Origin: Octopus vulgaris
Taxonomy: Eukaryota
Length of the DNA stretch: 64,000 nt
Direction: 5' to 3'
Assembly: GCA_951406725.2 (NCBI GenBank)
Contig: OX597814.1
Span: 203,174,001 to 203,238,000, forward strand
Program-made: the position numbers and the translations under genes
The notes under the pieces: generated by a model
The model's database searches: none
What the model saw: the letters and a program-made list of their open reading frames with translations, nothing else
Told to the model about the DNA's origin: nothing
In this document: one piece after another, positions 1,185-54,512 of the stretch
How positions within the stretch are numbered: the stretch's first letter is position 1
Layout: each line of letters opens with the position of its first letter

Positions 1185-1389
1185 TTTCGTTTTTGGATTT
1201 GGTTTGCAAGATTCTTTATATGAGTTCGTGTGTTGAAGCATATTCTATTGAGTCAAAACTATTGAAAAGGCTGCAAGACGCAAAGAAAATTTTAGGAAAA
1301 TAAAAATAAGAAAAAAGTGGAAATTTTACCAGTGAGTGTGTTACACAATAAGGCACAAAAAGAAAATGACTTTCCCCAGACACAATAGA
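1185..1389. mobile_element. Short internally inverted element (U3:A8 hammerhead family) with perfect 12-bp TSD
   Basis: ATCTTTAATGTA at 1173-1184 and 1390-1401; 1185-1250 is the reverse complement of 19542-19607; 1251-1391 matches 19410-19550. Confidence 0.8.
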
Positions 1390-3402
1390 ATCTTTAATGT
1401 AGTAAGCCAAATAAATTCTAATTAATGAAGATTACACTAGAAGGAAGAGAAAAAATATTTTTAGCATAATAATTCTTTTGCATTTTTGCTGCAGGCCAAC
1501 AATTTTTTAAGAGGTGGGGTCAATGTAGTCATTGACCCCAGTATATGGCCAATACTTCATTGACCCTGAAAGGATGAAAGACAAAGTTGACCTCAGCAGA
1601 ATTTGAGGTCAATTTACGCTCTTTATGTAAATTGACCTTCTGGCTCTTTAAGCAGGGTGTAAAGAACCGGAAGAAAAACATTCTGTCACTGCACTAAAAA
1701 TTCTGCCAGTTTGTCACCTTTATGTTTAATAATTAATTAATTCTTGATAATTAATTGTTGTTATGTAAGTTAGAGGAGACAACTTAGATGTTTTAATTAA
1801 ATAACATTGATTTGTAAATTGAATGGAAGTATACAGTGTGGAGTAAATGTGGTCTTTAGTGAATATGGATGACAACTTTGAACATATTTTAGTCTTATTA
1901 AATCTCCTCAACATAGCATAATTTGTACAGGCACTTGCCACCTCTTGAGATGACTGAGAGATATAAATATTGAGTGGATAAATACTGAGTCTGTTGTGTA
2001 TGACTACGAGGAGATTGTCATGGCATACTTCTGTTTTCTTGCCCCATTCTGCCTCTATAGTTTTGATCGTTCACTGGTTTCAGTCATTAGACTGCAGCCA
2101 TGCTGGAGCACAGCTTTTAAAAATTTTAGTTGATTGAATTAACCCCAGTATATATTTTTAAGCCTAGTAATTATTCTATTGGACTCTTTTGCTAAACTGT
2201 TAAGTCATGGGGACATAAACACACCAACACCAGTTGTCAAACAGTGGTGAGGGGACAAACAAAGATACACATTTAAATATATAGAAGATATTTGCCCAAA
2301 GTGCCACACAGTGGGACTGAACCTGGAACCATATGGTTGGGAAGCAAGCTTCTTTCCACAGTCCCCAGCACAGACAAAATACAGACCTGAAATAAGTAGT
2401 AAGGGGCCAAGTGATCTAATCTTCTACAACCATCACCCAGATTTGAGGTTCTGTAACCATGTTAAAAATCAATATTCTTTCTTTGGATTAATTTTCTTTC
2501 TTGTGGTGATTCCTTCTAATTTATTTTGGTGAAGTTTCACACAGCTAAATCTTTCAGCAAAGTATTACCATTATGACTTCACATTTTCTTTCCTCAAAAT
2601 GCCTCTAGCCTAAAATTTGCTCTAATTGTCAGATCAGCCCTGATCAAGTGTTCTAAGTACAAGAATCTGCTTGTTTTCCTCTGAGCAGGGAACCCAAGAC
2701 TTCATTATCAAATGTGCCCATCTTTAAGATGGTAAGGTGTAAATTGATGATTTAGCTGTTATTTCTAGCAGGTCAAGAATTCCTGTGGTCACAGGTCTGC
2801 TCATTTGAACAATAACAGCAAACTATTGCTAGCTACATGTTTAAATTGGGAGTTCTGTGACTGTGTAAAAATGTGACAACTGCTTCTCTAATCAGCTTTA
2901 GATTTTTATTTCATTAATTGTAAAGTCTCATCATAGTATTCAAAAAGCATTATACGGAGGTGACAGGGATAAGTGGTGATGTGTATAAATACAAGCCTGT
3001 TACCAGTTCAGGTATGCTTGAAGCATGTTTGAACCTGTAAGAAAGCCATTCACTGTTCTTTGTCATGGAGAAATTTTTTCGTTGTAGGCAAATAGGTGTA
3101 AATACACCAAGGTAGTTCACTGCATTCCCTAACCAGACTCTGGGATGCATGTGTTTCAGAGTCGTTATCTCCTCTTCAGTAACAGACACCAAAACAGCTG
3201 ATGTTATATGCTTAGACAAAAGACAGATCCCTCTTATGATATTCCTGTCATCGTTCAATGTGGTGTTCCAAAAGTTCTCTATTGTCTGATGACTGGTTAC
3301 ATAAAACAGATATTCTATGCAGTACACTATTATAGATCCATTTCAGCTTAAATATATCCCATTCTTTATTTGATATCTTTTATTTCTTTTTCTTTCCTTT
3401 AG

Positions 3403-8631: not shown

Positions 8632-8895
8632 AATTGCAGTGTGGAAGGTGTTTATAAGACATTTAAAAACACACAAAAACCATTAGATTCACTTCAACAT
8701 TGAAATTTAATTTGTTAAAATACTTTTGTCACTTTGAAACCGTAACCTGTTCACTGACAAAATTCTGTGCTGCACAGAATTTTGTCAGTGAACAGGTCAC
8801 GGTTTCAAAGTGATGAAAGTATTTAAATGTTGAAGTGAATCTAATGGCTTTTGTGTGTTTTTAAATGGCTTATAAACACCTTCCACGCTGCAATT
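8632..8895. repeat. Foldback palindrome with 1-nt spacer (centre 8771), flanked by (TA)n
   Basis: Arms 8632-8770 and 8772-8895; ~15-nt deletion in right arm. Confidence 0.9.
8781..8824 (+). ncRNA. Variant hammerhead-like motif with G3:C8 core (decayed)
   Basis: UUUGUCA-GUGAACA-G-GUCAC gguuucaaa GUGAU-GAAA-GUAUUU; the 3' strand of stem I is deleted here but present in the inverted copy at 8711-8762(-). Confidence 0.45.
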
Positions 8896-16910: not shown

Positions 16911-17816
16911 TATGCAAAAAAAACAAAAAAAAACTCAGAAAACAGGAAGGTCATGGTTGGATTATAGGTCTGTCCAATAAAACTGACCTGGGGCTAAACA
17001 CCAACTGATCAACAAATTGCCATAACTCCACCACCGCTACCACTACCACTCATGTAAATCTAGATGGATACATGTAAAATAGCAACAGCAACAACAACAA
17101 CAAAACTGTTTGCGTTTTTGTTTAAATATCTGTAGATATTATCTGGAGTGCTTGCTAGGTTCAAATGGGAAATGAAAGGAAGTAGATCTAATATATGTAT
17201 AAAGTCAATGATTTACATCACATCCATTTAGAATGTTCTACATATAAACACATTCTGTTGTGCTGGGATTCACGCACCAGTAAGATTCAAACCAATATTG
17301 TAAGAAAGATGGGATTAGAAAGTATAATCAAGATATCTTTAATTCATGCGCCATCTCTCTTAAACATTTTATTTCCTTTCCCATTTTAGCAATATACCAA
17401 TTTTATTTATTTATTTTTTTTAAGCAGCTTCAAAAATATGGGAAAATTGTAGAATATGAAATACGTAATCAGAAATTCATATAATTGTTACAGATTCTTC
17501 GATGATTTATTCATGAGAAATTTCTCTATAGTTTTCTGATATTTCCATATCTGAATAGAAACACTCCATTTTGAAAATATCCCCTCAAACTTGACAATTT
17601 TAACTTTATTTCATTTTTAATATAGGATTATTCAGATGACAAACATAAAAAAAAAGAGAATCGTGTACGACTAAATCTGGCTTATCGTTCAATTTTCAGT
17701 TATCTCTGTGGTGGGGGTAGGAGCAGGGTGGATCTGTTGTTGTTGTTTTTCACTTGGAAACAAAATTCTGTTTTAGTTGTGGTGTTTTATTTTGGTGTTT
17801 GTTTTCTCTTTGCCAG

Positions 17817-18968
17817 GCACATCAACTGGAAGTCCAAGATATTGATGCCGGAGAAAATGGTACTGTAACTCTAAGTCTCAATGGAGCAACTCAGTTTCGT
17901 CTTCGCAAAGTCGAAAACTCTAGCTATGTTGTTTATGTAAAAGCCAATTGGTCCCTTGACCGTGAATGGCGCAGTAATTACAATGTGAGCATCACTGCTC
18001 GTGATGGGGGTGACCCACCAAGGTCATCTGTCATATATTTATTCATTAAAGTTTTAGATGTTAATGATCACAGTCCACAGTTTCAGTATACTTCATATAA
18101 TATGACAGCCACTGAAAACTCCCCCCTTGGTAAAGTTATTGGCTATGTTCATGCTGATGATGAAGACTCCGAGGTCAATGGAGAAATTGAATATTCTATT
18201 GTGAGTGGATCAATGGAGATGTTTGAAATTGGTGAGAAAAATGGCAGTATATATATCAGCCAACCTAAACTGGATCGAGAGAAGAAAGACATTTATCACA
18301 TCACTGTGCGTGCACAAGATAAAGGTTTTCCTCGAAAGCAGGCACATACAGTTGTGAACGTATATGTTGAAGATGTCAATGATAATGCACCAGAGTTTTC
18401 GCAACAGGCCTACACAGTTACTGTTCCTGAAAACACACCAGTTGGAGACATTATTTTCCAGGTGGATGCACGTGACAGGGATTTAGGAGCTGGCGGTCAG
18501 GTCTCTTTCTTTTTGGAGCCTCGTTCCAAATTTTTCTACATAGACAAGAACAATGGTAGTATCTACTTGAACAAATCTCTTGACTATGAAACGACAAGGA
18601 AACATTTTACTTTCAACATTCTTTCTCACGATCATGGCACCCCGAGCATCAGTTCAATTGCTCCCATTGAAATAAAAGTCACTGATGTAAATGATGAAGT
18701 TCCTGAATTCTCTCAGCCGTTGTATGTTAGCCAGATCACCAAAACTTCGCCAATAGGAAAAGCCATTACAGTCGTCCAAGCAAAAGATACAGATTCAGAG
18801 ATCATTTATTACTTGACACCGTCATCTTCTGAGTTCACCATTGACAAATCAGGTGTCATTGTCCAAACTGAGAACATTGATAAAACAATATTCTCACCAG
18901 GTACGCTGTATAAGGAATTTAATGTCGTGGCTACTGACTCAATCCACACCGCCAATACATCTGTTCAG
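17817..18968 (+). CDS. Cadherin exon 4 (AHQLEVQDIDAGENG...ANTSVQ), nearly 4 EC repeats
   Basis: ttgccAG / GTAGGT; 1152 nt; LDRE, LDYE, DVNDHSP, DVNDNAP, DVNDEVP motifs. Confidence 0.96.
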
Positions 18969-19078
18969 GTAGGTCATTATTTAACCCTTTTTGTTACCAC
19001 ATCTCCATTGAAATACACTGCCTCTGTTTCAATTAATTTTTGAAATAATGAAGAATTTAGTAAAATAACTTTGTCGTT

Positions 19079-19605
19079 CTGTTGCGTCTGGGGAGAGTCA
19101 TTTTCTTTTTGTGCCTTGTAATGTAAAACACTCACCGGTAAAATTTCCACTTAAATCTTATTTTTATTTTCCTAAAATTTTCGTTGCGTCTTACAACCTT
19201 TTCAATAGTCTTGTTGGCTATGTTCATGCTTTCCAAGAGTCAAGATTATTGAAAAGGTTGTAAGATGCAATGAAAATTTTAGGAAAATAAAAATAAGAAA
19301 ATAAGTGGAAATTTTACCAGTGAGTGTGTTACATTATAAGGCACAAAAAATTTTCATTGCGTTAGCAACATTTTCAATAGTCTTATTGGCTATGCTCATG
19401 CTTTTCAAGAGTCAAGACTATTGTAAAGGTTGCAAGATGCAACGAAAATTTTAGGAAAAGAAAAACAAGATTTAAGTGGAAATTTTACCGGTGAGTATGT
19501 TACATTATAAGGCACAAAAAGAGAATGACTCTCCCCAGACACAACAGAATATGCTTCAACACCCAAACTCATATAAAGAATCTTGCAAACCAAATCCACA
19601 AACGA
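19079..19605. mobile_element. Double foldback element (U3:A8 hammerhead family) inserted in a TTAA-type MITE
   Basis: Arms alternate -,+,-,+; near-perfect 12-bp TSD AACTTTGTCRTT at 19067-19078 and 19606-19617. Confidence 0.8.
19172..19208 (-). ncRNA. Variant hammerhead-like motif with U3:A8 core
   Basis: Minus strand: CUA-UUGAAAA-G-GUUGU aagac GCAAC-GAAA-AUUU-UAG; further copies at ~19246-19282(+), ~19350-19380(-), ~19418-19454(+), ~1259-1295(+). Confidence 0.5.
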
Positions 19606-20130
19606 AACTTTGTCATTATTAAGCTGGTATTTAGAACATAGCACGAAATTTTGATAAGAAGTTTTAATTTAGACCACCTTAACCATTTTGTTACCATATT
19701 TCCACTGAAATACTCTGCCTATTTCAGTTTTGAATATAACGAAGAATTAAGTAATATAACTACCATTGTTAAGTTACAGTTTCGGACATAAGTTAGCACA
19801 AAATTTGATGGAAGGTTTTAATTTAAATCACTTTAAAATGCAAAGTTTGTATCATGGAACCAAGGGCAGTTCCAGGTTGGCCAGTATCAAAAAAGTTCAT
19901 TCTTTGATACCCTACTTTTGTTAAAATACACTGCCTTTGTTTCAATTAAATTTATTAAATTAACTTAATCATTATTAAGCTGGTGTTTGAAGCACAAATT
20001 ACCATAGAATTGCCTAACGTGTCACTCAATAGGATTGAACCCAAAACCATGTGGTTGGGAAGCAAACTTCTCAACCACACAAATCTCTTGATATTTTTGT
20101 GTCTTCTAACTTTTATTTTTAATTCCGCAG

Positions 20131-20340
20131 ATTTTTGCCACAGAAGATGAACCGATTGAGTTTAGGCACCCAGTCTACAGACTTAAAATTCCTGAAGATA
20201 TTAGGCCAGGTGGCAGAGTTTTCCGGTTGAAAATGTCGCGTAATCGTAACTCTGGCATCTTGTCTTCCGACCCAAGTTTGGCCAATTTGACTTATCATAT
20301 GATGTTTCCTCTCGACTGGTTTACCGTCAATTCAACAACA
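20131..20340 (+). CDS. Cadherin exon 5 (IFATEDEPIEF...IPED...FTVNSTT)
   Basis: ccgcAG / GTTAGT; 210 nt, phase 0/0. Confidence 0.88.
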
Positions 20341-21359
20341 GTTAGTATTTACCGTCATTAGTATTTGGTATATGCGTGTGTGTGTGTGTGTGCATGTATG
20401 TATATGGGCTTAACTTTCAAGTGCTGGTAAAACATAGTTACTTTACCAGTTGCTGCTACATTAAAACAATGCTACTAAGATTATCTAATATTAACTCCAT
20501 TGAATTTTAAATTCCATCCGAGCGTGATCGTCGCCAGAACAGCTATCTGGCCTCTGTGCCGGTGGCACATAAAAGACACCATTCGAGTGTGATCGTTACC
20601 AGCATGCCGGTGGCATGTGTAAAAGATTCAAGCGCGGTCATTGCCAGTACCGTCTGACTGGCCCCGTGCCAGTGGCACGTAAAAAGCACCCTCTACACTC
20701 TCGGAGTGGTTGGCGTTAGGAAGGGCATCCAGCTGTAGAAACTCTGCCAGATCAAGACTGGAGCCTGATGCAGCCATCTGGTTGCCAGTCCTCAGTCAAA
20801 TTGTCCAACCCATGCTAGCATGGAAAGCAGACGTTAAATGATGATGATGATGATGATGATCTTTTCATATTGACAGACATGAAGCTATTTCTGCAGTTTC
20901 ACATTAATCAGATTTTGTAAAGCAAATATAAATAAGTAAGAGTAATAATAATAATCCTTTCTACTAAAGGCACAAGGCCTGAAATTTGGGAGAGGGGGGC
21001 CAGTCGATTAGATTGACCCCAGTACACAACTGGTACTTAATTTATTGATCCTGAGGAAATGCTGCTAAACATTTTACCCGCCATGCTAACGATTCTGCCA
21101 GCTCACCACCTTAGTAACAGTAATAATAATGGCATATCTACACATGTGTACCCACCACCAGCTTTGTTTTTTATTGTTTTACTTGTTTCAATTATTTGAC
21201 TGCGACCATGCTGGAGCACCGCCTTTTGTCGAGCAAATCGATCCCAGGACTTATTCTTTGTAAGCCTAGTACTTATTCTATCGGTCTCTTTTGCCGAACT
21301 GCTAAGTGATGGGGGCGTAAACACACACCATCGGTTGTCAAACGATGTTGGGGAGACAA

Positions 21360-21430
<71 letters not shown>

Positions 21431-21528
21431 CACACACAAATACATATATACGACAGGCTTCTTTCAGTTTCCGTCTACCAAAGCCTTCTGAGTAGATTTG
21501 GTAGATGAAAACTGAAAGAATCCTGTCA

Positions 21529-21580
<52 letters not shown>

Positions 21581-22798
21581 TGTATTTTTGTGTCTGTGTT
21601 TGTCCCCCACCATCGCTTGACAACCGATGTTGGTGTGTTTACGTCCCCAAAACTTAGCGGTTGGGCAGAAGAGACAAATAGAAAAAAGTATTAGGCTTAC
21701 AAAAAATAAGTCCCGGGATAGATTTGTTCGACTAAAGGCAGTGCTCCAGCATGGCTGCAGTTAAATGACTGAAACCAGTACAAGAATAAGAGAATATTAT
21801 GATTATACAAACATGGAACACCCACACACAGTACTTGAAGTTTCCCAGCAAGCCATGGGTATGAAGTTATCTAATTTTCGATTAGTATTCACTTCACAAA
21901 CCATCATCCCTCATTTGTATTAGATATATTTCTCTATTCCAAGGGACATTGGAGCCTACTTATTTTGTTGTTATATATATATCTATGGTTAATCATTTTT
22001 GTGCGTGTGTACGTGTGTGTAAAATAATAATTTATGATACTTAACAATAATTCAGATATGCTAACTAGGTTAATATTTTGAATTTTTCACTATTTTGCTT
22101 AGTCTCTCGATATATCTATATTGTGTGTATAAACTGACAAATGATATCTTTACACAGACAGATTTTCTTATGTTTTTAATTCTAATTTTCCTTGTGTTTA
22201 CTTTACCAATTATTGCCTTCTACTCTAATACAATAATCAATCTTTGAATTGTACAGCTACAGTCCTTTATATTCTTAAAGAATGAAAATTCTATTTTCTC
22301 CAGAAATTATCTTTACAATTTTTCTTCAGGCTGTATAAGTCTTGATTTGATCATTTCTGTAAAAATAATCGGCTACACCTTTATGTTTAGCCCCACTTGT
22401 CTGTTGCCTGGAACCATTTCAAAAACTACAGACGTAGTTGAGATCTTACAGTCGATAGTCTAAACTTAGTGTGGTATAACTGCAATCTCTCTCTTGCTAG
22501 TATTCCTCTCATTTCTTAAATGACTATTTTGAAATATATTTTTTATGTTGTTGTTGTAGATTTTTCTATTATTATTATTATTAAGGCAGCAAGCTGGCAG
22601 CATTGTTACTGTGCCAGACAAGATGCTTAGTGACATTTCTTCCAGTTCTTCATGTTCTGAGTTCAAATTCTACTAAGGTCAACTTTGCCGTTTATCCTTT
22701 CAGGGTTGATAAAATAAATACCAATTGAACATTGAAGTTGGAGTAATTGACATACTACTCCCTTGAAATTGCTGGCCTTATGCCTTTAGTAGAAAGGC

Positions 22799-40594: not shown

Positions 40595-40833
<239 letters not shown>

Positions 40834-41164
40834 CATACATATACATAAATCCAAAATTAAAAACAAAAACAACAAAAGTCAATTGAACATGCACAGTGAA
40901 TATATTAGATTGACGATCAGTGAAAGTTTTAAATGGAAAAATAGGAGTGGCATGGTTGATGCCATCCCCCTGTGCCAGTGACACATAAAAAAAGCACCCA
41001 CTACACTCTTGGAGTGGTTGGCATTAGGAAGGGCATCCAGCTGTAGAAACTCTGCCACAACAGACTGGAGCCTGGTGCAGCCTCCAAGCTTCCCAGACCC
41101 CAGTTGAACCGTCCAACCCATGCCAGCATGGAGTATGGACATTAAACGATGATGATGATATATT

Positions 41165-41222
<58 letters not shown>

Positions 41223-41300
41223 GATGACTATGGTATCTAAGTTAAGGCACCAGAATTTAGTATGGTATTATCCATACAATTTCAAAAATAAGGTGATTAA

Positions 41301-41701
41301 AATCAAAATAAGCAACAAGGATATCCAGAGGTAATGCAGTACGATTATGTCATGCAACTCCATTTATTTGAACAAAGCAATCATTACATCAATTTAAAAT
41401 GCAGAGCAATCTTCAGCTGCACAAAGACATAGAATTTAATTAAAGTAGAACAGATGGACACATTAGTATAATTATACGTAAAATCTCCAAGAAAATTATA
41501 CTTAAAATCTCTTCTTGGAGATTTTAGGTATAATTATACTAATGTGTCCGTCTGTTCTAATTTAATTAAATTCTATGTCTTTGTGCAGCTGAAGATAGCT
41601 CTGCATTTTAAATTGATGTAATGATTGCTTTGTTCAATTAAATGGAGTTGCATGAAATCATCGTACTGCATTACCTCTGGATATCCTTGTTGCTTATTTT
41701 G

Positions 41702-41704
<3 letters not shown>
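41301..41704. repeat. Foldback palindrome, ~193-bp arms, 18-nt spacer (second copy at 42733-43136)
   Basis: Arms 41301-41493 and 41512-41704; located between (TA)n tracts. Confidence 0.92.
41584..41670 (+). ncRNA. Duplicate copy of the long-stem-II hammerhead
   Basis: Same as 43016-43102 except GAAAU instead of GAAAC (U-G wobble in stem III). Confidence 0.68.
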
Positions 41705-41736
<32 letters not shown>

Positions 41737-42165
41737 GACCGTTGCCAGCACGACCGTTGCCAGCACCGCCCCGTTTCGTGTCCGTTGCCAGCCTCACCTG
41801 GCCCTCGTGCCGGTGGCACATAAAAATCACCATCCGTTCGTGGCCGTTTGCCAGCTCTGTCTGGCACCAGTGCGGGTGGCACGTAAAAAGCACCCACTAC
41901 ACTCACGGAGTGGTTGGCATTAGGAAGGGCATCCAGCCATAGAAACACTGCCAGATTTGACTGGGCCTGATGAAGCCTTCTGGCTTCACAGACCCCAGTA
42001 GAACTGTCCAACCCATGCTAGCATGGAAAACGGACGCTAAACGATGATGATGATGATGACACACACACACACACCTACATGTATTATTGACAGTGACTTC
42101 AAAGAAAAATTTATTTTATTATAACTGATCATAAAAGCAAACATTGGTGTGTGTATCTGTTTATG

Positions 42166-42266
<101 letters not shown>

Positions 42267-42597
42267 CATACATATACATAAATCCAAAATTAAAAACAAA
42301 AACAACAAAAGTCAATTGAACATGCACAGTGAATATATTAGATTGACGATCAGTGAAAGTTTTAAATGGAAAAATAGGAGTGGCATGGTTGATGCCATCC
42401 CCCTGTGCCAGTGACACATAAAAAAAGCACCCACTACACTCTTGGAGTGGTTGGCATTAGGAAGGGCATCCAGCTGTAGAAACTCTGCCACAACAGACTG
42501 GAGCCTGGTGCAGCCTCCAAGCTTCCCAGACCCCAGTTGAACCGTCCAACCCATGCCAGCATGGAGTATGGACATTAAACGATGATGATGATATATT

Positions 42598-42655
<58 letters not shown>

Positions 42656-43015
42656 GATGACTATGGTATCTAAGTTAAGGCACCAGAATTTAGTATGGTA
42701 TTATCCATACAATTTCAAAGTAAGGTGATTAAAATCAAAATAAGCAACAAGGATATCCAGAGGTAATGCAGTACGATTATGTCATGCAACTCTATTTATT
42801 TGAACAAAGCAATCATTACATCAATTTAAAATGCAGAGCAATCTTCAGCTGCACAAAGACATAGAATTTAATTAAAGTAGAACAGATGGACACATTAGTA
42901 TAATTATACGTAAAATCTCCAAGAAAATTATACTTAAAATCTCTTCTTGGAGATTTTAGGTATAATTATACTAATGTGTCCGTCTGTTCTAATTTAATTA
43001 AATTCTATGTCTTTG

Positions 43016-43102
43016 TGCAGCTGAAGATAGCTCTGCATTTTAAATTGATGTAATGATTGCTTTGTTCAATTAAATGGAGTTGCATGAAACCATCGTACTG
43101 CA
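43016..43102 (+). ncRNA. Type I hammerhead with long (~58 nt) stem II, in right arm of a foldback element
   Basis: UGCAG-CUGAAGA-[hairpin 43028-43085]-GAAA-C CAUC GUA-CUGCA. Confidence 0.72.
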
Positions 43103-43133
43103 TTACCTCTGGATATCCTTGTTGCTTATTTTG

Positions 43134-43170
<37 letters not shown>

Positions 43171-45473
43171 GACCGTTGCCAGCACGACCGTTGCCAGCAC
43201 CGCCCCGTTTCGTGTCCGTTGCCAGCCTCACCTGGCCCTCGTGCCGGTGGCACATAAAAAGCACCATCCGTTCGTGGCCGTTTGCCAGCTCTGTCTGGCA
43301 CCAGTGCGGGTGGCACGTAAAAAGCACCCACTACACTCACGGAGTGGTTGGCGTTAGGAAGGGCATCCAGCCATAGAAACACTACCAGATTTGACTGGGC
43401 CTGATGAAGCCTTCTGGCTTCACAGACCCCAGTAGAACTGTCCAACCCATGCTAGCATGGAAAACGGACGCTAAACGATGATGATGATGATGACACACAC
43501 ACACACACCTACATGTATTATTGACAGTGACTTCAAAGAAAAATTTATTTTATTATAACTGATCATAAAAGCAAACATTGGTGTGTGTATCTGTTTATGT
43601 ACTTGCACAACAGAATTCTGTACAATTTTCACATACTGAATTCTATGAAAGAAGATACCTGACCAAGATGTCACACAATGGAATTGTAATCAGAACTAAG
43701 TGGTTAAAAAGCAAACTTCTTAAATACCACAGCCCACAATTTTTTTTTTCTTTAAAAAAATAACTGTTCTACCATTTAGTAAAATGGTAGAACAGTAGAA
43801 ACACAAATATCTTTCAGTAGTTAGTTCCATTCCTCAAGATCCGTCTTACTTTTCGTCTCTCTCTCTGGAGAGTTTTATAAAATATGTGCTATTCATGTGC
43901 TAAAGTCAATACAATTCACTTGATTCCTGCTGTACAAATGCCTGGCTGTTTGCCAATGTAACCAATCAATATGTTCTGTTTAATAAAGCAAATTTATTGT
44001 TTCCTACTGGAGAACATAGTTAGTGAAGCAATATGAGACTAGTAAAGACATTCTGGAACAAACACTGTAAATGAAGAAAAGTCAACTTGATTCCATCAAA
44101 AATATTTACTAAACAGAATGGTAAAAGATTATTTTTTATTGAAGTTACTTTTACCTATTTCCAAGATACCTCATACACAGATACATGCTTATGTAAACAA
44201 AGCATCCATTCACACACACACACATACATCCTCATTTAACATTCGTTTTTCGATACTGGCATAGATTGGATCTGACACACCTCAAGACTGCATGAAACTT
44301 CAGCGTCTGCTTTGGCATGGTTTCTATGACTAGATGCTCTTCCTAACACAAACCACTTTGCAGTAAGCACTGAGTGCTTTTTTCATGTCACCAGTACTAA
44401 GAGGAGGTGATAGCTTCATGCCAAGTGTTAAGCACAGGTGTCTTGCTATAGAGGAGATACATAGCTATCCCACACATATAAACCCACAACAGTTACATAC
44501 ATAAATCAAAAAATATATTTACATACATATATACTCTTTTCTCCTCTAGACACAAGGCCCAAAATTTTTGGGGAGGTGGGGCAGTCAATTAGATTGATTC
44601 CAGTACACAACTGGTACTTAATTTATCAACCCTGAAAGGATTAAAGTCAACCTCGGCAGAATTTGAACTCAGATCATAAAGACAGACGAAATACCTATTT
44701 CTTTACTACCCACAAGGGGCTAAACACAGAGAGGACAAACAAGGACAGACAAAGGGATTAAGTCGATTATATCGACCTCAGTGTGTAACTGGTACTTACT
44801 TAATCAACCCCGAAAGGATGAAAGGCAAAGTCGACCTCAGCTGAATTTGAACTCAGAATGTAGCAGCAGATGAAATACCACTAAGCGTTTTGCCCGGCGT
44901 GCTAACGTTTCTGCCAGCTCACTGCCTTCCAATTTATATACATATATAAACACACAGATGACAGGTTTCTTCCAGTTTCTGTCAACCAAATCCACTCATA
45001 AGGCTTGGTTGACCCAGCATTGAACCCAAGAGCTTTTGGTTAGGAAGCAAGCTTCTTAACTAATCAGCCACAACTGCAATTAATATCCAATTCACATGAT
45101 CAACCAGACTTTTAGATGTTGTTATACACAATATGCTGACAATGTGCCTTGCATTGTTTTAGGTTTTGAATGATGCCACCCTGCTAGGTAGGTGGGCAGG
45201 CAAACATTCCCCTGATCAGAAGCCTAATCTGTCACAGGGTTACCATTTACAGCCGAGTGAACTGGAGCAACATGAAATGAAGTGCTTTGCTCAAGAGCAC
45301 AACACACATCCAGCCTGGAAATCAAAACCGCAATTCCATAATCACAAGTGCAATACCCTAACCACTTAGCCACTTCCAAATAAACTTACACATATATGTA
45401 CACATATAAACATTTACATGTACACACCCATATAAACCCACACATATTCATCCACCCATATACTATTCACATT

Positions 45474-53996: not shown

Positions 53997-54512
53997 CGGG
54001 GTGGCCCAAAAGTGGGTTTACAGTTATTCAACTATCTCTTTCGCTTTCAAATATTAACAGCTTAGATCTTAATTATAAAAACATGACAGTCCCATAAAGG
54101 GAATTACACCACCGCTGTTTAGCCCTAAGAAGCATTGACGCTTCCTGTTGGCTTTGACACATTTCCTGTGTCCTTATATTTGCAAAGGGGAGGCAAGCAC
54201 CCCCACCAGCTAGGACTAGCAACCTGAAGACATGCATGTTTCTGGGTTTTGCCCATCATCAGTCCAGGGTATTAAGTCCTGCTAGTTGAGATACCTGCCA
54301 AACCTTCGCAAATGTATATATTTACAGCGAAATCTATTCACTGGTCACTGTAATTAGAAATATTTCTAATTACATTATTCTATGCTAATTTAGTTAATTT
54401 TGTCAAGTTCCCTTTTCAGTTTGTAAGATAAGAATTTAAATGTAATAAAATGTTTTAAAAGAAATTTAAAGTACGTACATGAAAACTGTAAACCTACTTT
54501 TGGGCCACCCTG
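53997..54512. mobile_element. Tc1/mariner-like MITE containing the hammerhead element
   Basis: 29-bp TIRs C(A/G)GGGTGGCCCAAAAGT(A/G)GGTTTACAGTT; TA at right flank (CA at left). Confidence 0.75.
54223..54268 (-). ncRNA. Type I hammerhead ribozyme, canonical core
   Basis: Minus strand: CCUGGA-CUGAUGA-UGGG caaaa CCCA-GAAA-C AUGCAU GUC-UUCAGG. Stems I and II pair; stem III is palindromic; GUC cleavage triplet; stem I extends further (AGGACU/AGUCCU). Confidence 0.85.

Follow-up and report, generated by a model that had tools for sequence, protein, structure and literature searches.

A 527-bp insert at positions 19079-19605 of a 64-kb stretch of Octopus vulgaris DNA (64,000 nucleotides, hereafter the window) is likely a dead, non-coding remnant of the end of a Penelope-like element (PLE), made up of a pLTR and a tail and lodged in a host intron, whose four hammerhead motifs belong to the known dimer-type U3:A8 kind and are predicted neither to fold nor to cut. 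What is new at this locus is a short patch of host exon that occurs at both inversion junctions of the insert. Membership of the PLEs, which is likely, rests on architecture, with no reverse transcriptase (RT) or endonuclease gene linked to the insert. The wider family was followed through a second copy in the window and through contigs of public sequencing runs (coded X1, X3, X8, X13 and so on), which were read as showing presence only, such that summed contig depth was not taken as copy number.

The insert is flanked on the left by AACTTTGTCGTT (19067-19078, + strand, 12 bp) and on the right by AACTTTGTCATT (19606-19617, + strand, 12 bp), and these two copies of the target site duplication (TSD) are identical at 11 of 12 positions. 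In all four runs (2, 3, 3 and 1 contigs), other copies of the surrounding host repeat preserve the empty site, joining 19069 to 19609 and skipping exactly 539 bases, that is, 527 plus 12, and it is because of these joints that the TSD can be taken as real; loose ends past 19075 in the empty-site contigs resemble the right flank. The initial annotation had described a 527-bp insert bounded by a 12-bp TSD and holding four motif-derived copies in alternating orientation (-,+,-,+), and this outline is borne out on both points. The first inversion junction is no assembly artefact, since a contig from run X8 bridges 19163-19322 with 4 differing letters and no gaps. The host setting is an intron of a protocadherin Fat4-like gene (18972-20127, + strand, bounds approximate), where the insert lies within another repeat family: an open reading frame at 17754-19043 has 100% identity over 90% of its length to an Octopus vulgaris protocadherin Fat 4-like protein, and tblastn places the cadherin exons at 17817-18971 and 20128-20340 on the + strand.

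The four motifs are in very different states of repair. The first, U1, belongs to an inverted unit (19079-19213, - strand) whose tail-less 3′ end forms the left boundary of the insert, and it is the sole near-intact minimal hammerhead (19172-19208). U2 (19236-19346, + strand) is a forward unit cut at 19346, its hammerhead carrying a G10.1-U11.1 pair and a U-G pair in stem I; U3 (19347-19384, - strand) is an inverted remnant that lacks the 3′ strand of stem I, has UUU at its end in place of UAG, and also bears G10.1-U11.1; and U4 (19408-19549, + strand) is a forward unit whose core reads UUGUAAA, an A6U change. A strict minimal-hammerhead descriptor accepts U1 (- strand, 19172-19205) and U2 (+ strand, 19249-19282) and rejects U3 and U4; across the whole window it finds, besides these two, one unrelated canonical motif at 54223-54262, and it returned no match in any of 30 dinucleotide-shuffled 64-kb windows. 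The consensus that the initial annotation had written for all four copies therefore describes only some of them, with U1 alone agreeing with it throughout, U2 still passing the descriptor, and the others altered as above. The minimal features of a hammerhead (a Watson-Crick 3:8 pair, GAAA, a UH cleavage site, a palindromic 15.2-16.2, and stems I and II) are present in U1, in U2 and in the majority of the family.

Searches for related motifs gave little. Rfam yielded no match at gathering score in the window, and the 46 sub-threshold Rfam matches at 18900-19800, which are mostly to miRNA hairpin models and include no hammerhead family, were set aside as generic long-hairpin matches; exact-pattern scans for the motif in metagenome contigs, viral contigs and prokaryote genomes returned nothing. 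The unrelated motif at 54223-54262 (- strand) is a type I hammerhead with a canonical core (CUGAUGA), a 6-bp stem I, a 4-bp stem II and a long palindromic helix III; it sits in another cadherin intron, antisense to the gene, and is retrozyme- or PLE-like in look. Within U4, a perfect 7-bp complement (19408-19414 and 19526-19532, 110 nt apart) might form a long-range stem enclosing the hammerhead.

Loop-less, dimer-type hammerheads in PLE pLTRs were defined by Cervera and de la Pena in 2014 (PMC4209133), and the features that had been singled out in the octopus motifs are to be found there. The same source counts about 1,300 U3-A8 matches in Schistosoma mansoni, with pairs on opposite strands 100-700 bp apart, and its supplement includes a PLE-associated motif, Schistosoma mansoni(4), with a UUGAAAA core and a 3-bp stem I, as well as a PLE-associated motif from Crassostrea gigas with a 3-bp stem I, a 5-bp stem II and AUUU after GAAA. 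The U3:A8 pair, taken in the initial annotation as a novel option, is thus already published for PLE hammerheads (PMC4209133) and was described separately as a natural covariation that is active in vitro (PMC3088659). The reading of stem III as loop-less, and so foldable only in a dimer, stands as a description of the fold and loses its novelty, such a stem having been described for PLE hammerheads (PMC4209133); the 3-bp stem I, the AAUU and UUU sequences and the opposite-strand pairs are likewise all published. In sum, the octopus motifs resemble the minimal hammerheads (min-HHR) of metazoan PLEs, including the S. mansoni Cercyon U3-A8 and C. gigas examples, in their loop-less palindromic helix III and short stem I, in the extra base between positions 9 and 10.1, in G10.1-C11.1, U3:A8 and U at position 17, and in the opposite-strand pairing at 100-700 bp (PMC4209133). 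They differ from the min-HHR consensus in that the base after A9 is G here and H there (PMC4209133), and from the min-HHR PLEs in packing four copies into 300 bp, which is owed to a local duplication; the sequence of the family itself did not turn up in the parts of the sources that were searched. The hammerhead of the octopus element Hydra-1_Obim, as given in PMC8557442, has a C3:G8 core and other stems, and what that source provides of its sequence has no match to the family of the insert.

In the orientation of the hammerhead strand, a family unit comprises about 140 nt followed by a tail of 56-58 nt; the insert has a single such tail, at 19550-19605 (+ strand) on its right side. At each of its two boundaries lies a 3′ end of the hammerhead strand, tail-less on the left and tailed on the right. 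The inverted arms are 137 nt long and 93% identical, and the right arm ends 56 nt before the boundary, so that the insert is without a terminal inverted repeat. The second copy in the window (1185-1391) consists of an inverted tail and a forward unit between perfect 12-bp TSD copies of its own (1173-1184 and 1390-1401); it is a mirrored version of the same layout with no long arms, so that a 12-bp TSD and a head-to-head arrangement with an inverted, 5′-truncated copy are seen in two of two window copies. At the inversion junction of this second copy there is no filler, short microhomology being all that is found, and two pairs of its stem II are disrupted.

The two kinds of 3′ end, near 19549 and at 19607, are common to the two window copies and to independent contigs. 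Contigs that end at about 19550, or at the equivalent 19078/9, and continue into unrelated flank were found in X1 (records 2, 3 and 4) and X13 (record 10), and loose ends at 19607 number 216 in X1 and 232 in X3, with low agreement among them (about 0.45) and an AT-rich composition. The family is abundant and shared among organisms, with 3101, 2009, 1430 and 670 contigs matching 116 bases in four runs from four organisms. Measured from the start of stem II, the insert ends lie at 121 nt (tail-less) and 179 nt, both within the range of about 100-200 nt expected for a hammerhead on the sense strand of a pLTR.

This layout is what the PLE literature would lead one to expect, a point that the initial annotation had missed. 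Partial tandems, inverted 5′-truncated copies and a one-sided tail of 30-40 nt are described by Craig et al. 2021 (PMC8557442), who also report an element, Penelope-13_HM, with a hammerhead on each strand, and TSDs of 8-10 bp, palindromes at inverted junctions and the capture of longer host DNA between pLTRs are described in PMC3846280. The mechanism reported by Frangieh et al. 2024 (PMC11167929), in which both target strands are cut and extended and two internal RT start sites make the tail, explains such a layout; in the anole element Poseidon studied there, the first RT start lies 111-118 nt from the start of stem II, compared with 121 nt here. The insert is therefore like the inverted pLTR insertions of EN+ PLEs (PMC8557442, PMC3846280) in its head-to-head units, partial tandem, tail at one end, TSD, AT-rich flanks and a hammerhead some 120 nt from the first end, and unlike them in having no open reading frame and in the short host-exon patch within its inverted junction. 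Two measurements count against a perfect fit, namely the tail of 56-58 nt rather than 30-40 nt (PMC8557442) and the TSD of 12 bp rather than 8-10 bp (PMC3846280). As for the host, 31 recently active PLE families have been reported in O. vulgaris, with hammerheads unmentioned in the accessible part of that report (PMC13282606).

The insert contains no open reading frame of at least 100 amino acids, and no RT or GIY-YIG endonuclease gene could be tied to the family. Two short frames used as protein queries brought up no real homologue; phmmer against 1.84 billion representatives gave two matches, both to unrelated repetitive proteins; and word-index and Atlas searches with the short frames gave no homologue. 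In the accessible part of the Craig 2021 supplement (PMC8557442), none of four DNA words of 10-12 nt from the family and none of three peptide words occurred. A short ATG-started frame at 19525-19605 runs to the end of the tail, and its variation among copies looks synonymous; by analogy with Poseidon, the open reading frame of the parent element may begin here.

Given that no link to an RT was found, and that the insert has 137-nt inverted arms at 93% identity and a long TSD, it might instead be a MITE or foldback DNA transposon, or a SINE mobilised by a LINE and inverted by twin priming (which together with local co-insertion is known for L1; PMC10191854), with only an incidental likeness to a hammerhead. 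We regard this as improbable: the right arm stops 56 nt short, leaving no terminal inverted repeats, the second copy is without long arms, a poly(A) or simple-repeat tail is missing, and the two ends are both 3′ ends of one strand. Nor does incidental likeness sit well with a motif that is absent from 30 shuffles and fits the PLE consensus (PMC4209133) nearly point for point. Another class to be compared is that of the non-LTR retrozymes (bioRxiv 10.64898/2026.07.22.740005), which are likewise short and non-autonomous, carry a hammerhead and are related to PLE pLTRs. Retrozymes are described there as head-to-tail tandems of whole units; the insert is arranged head to head, with an inversion junction inside its direct repeat, and was rejected as a retrozyme on account of the alternating orientation of its units and the damage to three of its four motifs.

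The remnant of a PLE end that we favour is also predicted to be catalytically silent. The minimum free energy of the full insert is -253 kcal/mol on the + strand and -243 kcal/mol on the - strand, the folds being long hairpins (z = -28 for the + strand), and forcing both hammerhead folds in the full insert would cost 64 (+) and 56 (-) kcal/mol; these energies are equilibrium predictions that ignore co-transcriptional folding and proteins. In the two constructs proposed by the initial annotation, opening would still cost 25 and 44 kcal/mol, and the pairing probabilities of stem II in the full insert run from 2e-14 to 9e-6. The model thus has all the motifs buried by the inverted arms and locked shut.

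The cores of a double hammerhead act crosswise, each on the cleavage site of the other. Each strand of the insert offers one complete combination of core and substrate (the U2 core on the U4 site, and the U3 core on the U1 site), and the cores of both bear G10.1-U11.1; the remaining two combinations have either A6U or a 1-bp stem I. Changes at A6 lead to low hammerhead activity, as shown for A6C (PMC3088659), and even intact dimeric PLE hammerheads have low activity in vitro (PMC4209133). The earlier suggestion that the two same-strand copies on each strand make a working pair is accordingly not upheld, each strand having a single complete combination with a G10.1-U11.1 core and motifs predicted to be buried, and cleavage by the insert RNA is judged unlikely on these models.

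A functional reading would make the insert a dimer-dependent ribozyme switch working in both directions, with the cadherin pre-mRNA or an antisense RNA as the molecule that is cut. It draws on the presence of two same-strand motifs and one complete core/substrate combination on each strand, on the in vitro activity of U3:A8 cores (PMC3088659) and on the anole PLE hammerhead, which cuts when its protein is present (PMC11167929). Set against these are the G10.1-U11.1 pairs of both usable cores, the A6U or 1-bp stem I of the other combinations, the vanishing stem II probabilities and high opening costs even in the two proposed constructs, the weak in vitro cutting by intact dimeric PLE motifs (PMC4209133) and the lack of any sign of compensatory change in the family, so that a switch of this kind seems highly implausible. 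Hammerhead cleavage is dispensable for PLE insertion in vitro (PMC11167929).

Variation within the family is of little help to a functional reading. The core and stem II are near-invariant in the four runs, where six differences from U2 reach at least 4%; four of these are transitions at two CpGs, one of them weakening G10.1-C11.1, one of the remaining two reverts a change private to U2, and the other lies outside the motif. There is no sign of compensatory change in the stems among these differences at or above 4% in the four runs, nor among five window copies. Family-wide variation is CpG decay, and family conservation reflects descent from a source copy. The family's upstream motif was found twice in the window against 1.57 occurrences expected, which is chance level.

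The remnant is more informative about how it was assembled than about catalysis. Between the inverted and forward units the same spacer occurs at both inversion junctions, and it matches a host exon 1.08 kb upstream on the same strand: 20 nt at 19211-19230 (+) agree with exon positions 18136-18155 (+), coding sequence in the cadherin exon 17817-18971 and the likely donor, at 19 of 20 positions, 17 of them in an exact run, and the second copy at 19383-19402 (+) also agrees at 19 of 20, with a different mismatch. Over the two strands of 64 kb, 7e-5 exact 17-mers of this kind would be expected; when the spacer was shuffled 20,000 times, no shuffle matched the surrounding 3.6 kb over more than 14 nt; and the patch is the sole exact match of at least 15 nt between the 3,525 mapped exonic nucleotides and the rest of the window. 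A patch that matches the host exon points to a junction assembled at the site of insertion itself, from a local template. Literature searches at the level of titles found no report of locally copied patches in PLE junctions.

Two other origins for the spacer were considered. That it might be upstream sequence of the element was dropped, as other family copies carry different sequence there (upstream of 19236, loose ends occur in 15-28 contigs per run with an agreement of about 0.5) and the spacer itself matches the host exon. The spacer also matches the right flank over 9 nt (at 19634), which is within chance, as matches of at least 9 nt were reached in about one third of shuffles. Contig cover of the patch region is nil in X3, X4 and X7 and next to nil in X13, and, the data showing presence only, this was not counted as evidence. 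The 8 nt between the patch and the unit match the element's own minus strand weakly, at 12 of 13 positions at the second junction and 11 of 13 at the first, and may have been copied from it.

Because both junctions share a patch that matches a nearby host exon, the junction would have been made once at this locus and then duplicated. The duplication is visible as a 173-bp tandem: its first copy, D1 (19174-19346, +), contains the inversion junction, its second, D2 (19347-19518, +), starts with U3, the joint between them falls in an A-run common to both sides, and the two align as a direct repeat at 89% over 176 positions. Deleting one copy leaves a simple foldback of 355 nt. It is likely, to judge from these alignments, that a single junction was duplicated in this way and that two motifs thereby became four. 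Unit identities are 120/133 (90.2%) for U2/U4, 125/135 for U1/U4, 97/106 for U1/U2 and 101/110 for U2 against an independent copy; U2 and U4 are no more alike than independent copies are (87.9-91.8%), which counts against the reading favoured here and puts the duplication at about the age of the insertion, and we infer that it took place during or soon after integration.

The proposal of the initial annotation, a single insertion built by repeated template switching, is supported as to the single insertion, there being one TSD, and as to template switching at the inversion junction, where the host-exon patch lies; it gives way as to the repetition, the junctions being one that was duplicated rather than the product of separate switches for four units. 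A version in which all four units arose during integration itself, the nascent cDNA re-copying the new junction, differs from the sequence of events that we prefer in timing only, and we hold it to be a real possibility that falls somewhat short of probable. It gains from the low U2/U4 identity just given, from a junction that is already a patchwork of host sequence and possibly 8 nt of element minus strand, and from the frequency of partial-tandem insertion in PLEs (PMC8557442); what weighs against it is that the second junction copies the first down to its locus-specific patch, which calls for no new RNA template, and that one tandem duplication with its joint in an A-run suffices. The few sites at which the inner units differ from the outer pair could also be read as a second, independent family member nested in the first, but no inner TSD is seen, and an independent element would not be expected to carry the same host-derived patch at its junction, which makes nesting very hard to credit.

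One feature of the units counts against a plain duplication of the single junction. U1 and U4 share two adjacent changes (at 19471-2, positions at which A makes up about 95-98% of the depth in X1) that have no counterpart in U2, and U1 and U2 share one change missing from U4, the family being about 98% C at that position. A plain duplication would yield these patterns only if correction from arm to arm followed; that both sharing pairs are inverted-arm partners suggests such later correction.

Taken together, these observations can be arranged in a candidate course of events. An element-encoded GIY-YIG endonuclease, acting in trans, would have nicked both strands 12 nt apart, and reverse transcription would have been primed at each nick, in one case from the tail end and in the other from the internal start site. 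The two cDNAs would have met head to head and been joined via short microhomologies and a patch for which the host locus 1.08 kb upstream served as template; slippage in an A-run, during or soon after integration, would then have duplicated the centre of the 355-nt foldback, taking two motifs to four. The copies would afterwards have decayed, probably with some arm-to-arm correction of sequence.

Head-to-head joining with local sequence in the junction has a parallel in another class of element. For L1 twin priming, Nam et al. 2023 (PMC10191854) describe one somatic case with co-inserted local pre-mRNA, which they read as RT strand switching, and template switching and twin priming are summarised in PMC13174262; the octopus insert is like the L1 case (PMC10191854) in that two primed cDNAs appear joined head to head with local host sequence between them, the element class being different. 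For the patch itself, neighbouring DNA is somewhat more likely to have been the template than nascent pre-mRNA. The other option, that the patch is a fossil of a PLE RT that jumped from element RNA to the nascent pre-mRNA of the host while joining cDNAs from opposite nicks, we put forward tentatively and with considerable doubt; if it were true, inverted PLE junctions across the family would form a genome-wide record of how integration was resolved and of the genes transcribed at the time.

As a ribozyme locus the insert has small value, both the variant and its setting having been published already. Its interest is as a small natural experiment on the joining of head-to-head cDNAs, the least understood step of PLE transposition, and if patches were scored family-wide by strand (sense or antisense), by source (exon or intron, spliced or unspliced) and by distance, RNA templates could be told apart from DNA templates.

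Other repeat families in the window have left foldback inserts as well, at 8632-8895, 41298-41707 and 21171-21789; two of these end beside (TA)n, and they are possibly PLE ends or MITEs. At 40720-43601 there is a 1,434-bp tandem duplication of 99% identity that contains a 410-bp palindrome and is either a recent duplication or an assembly artefact.
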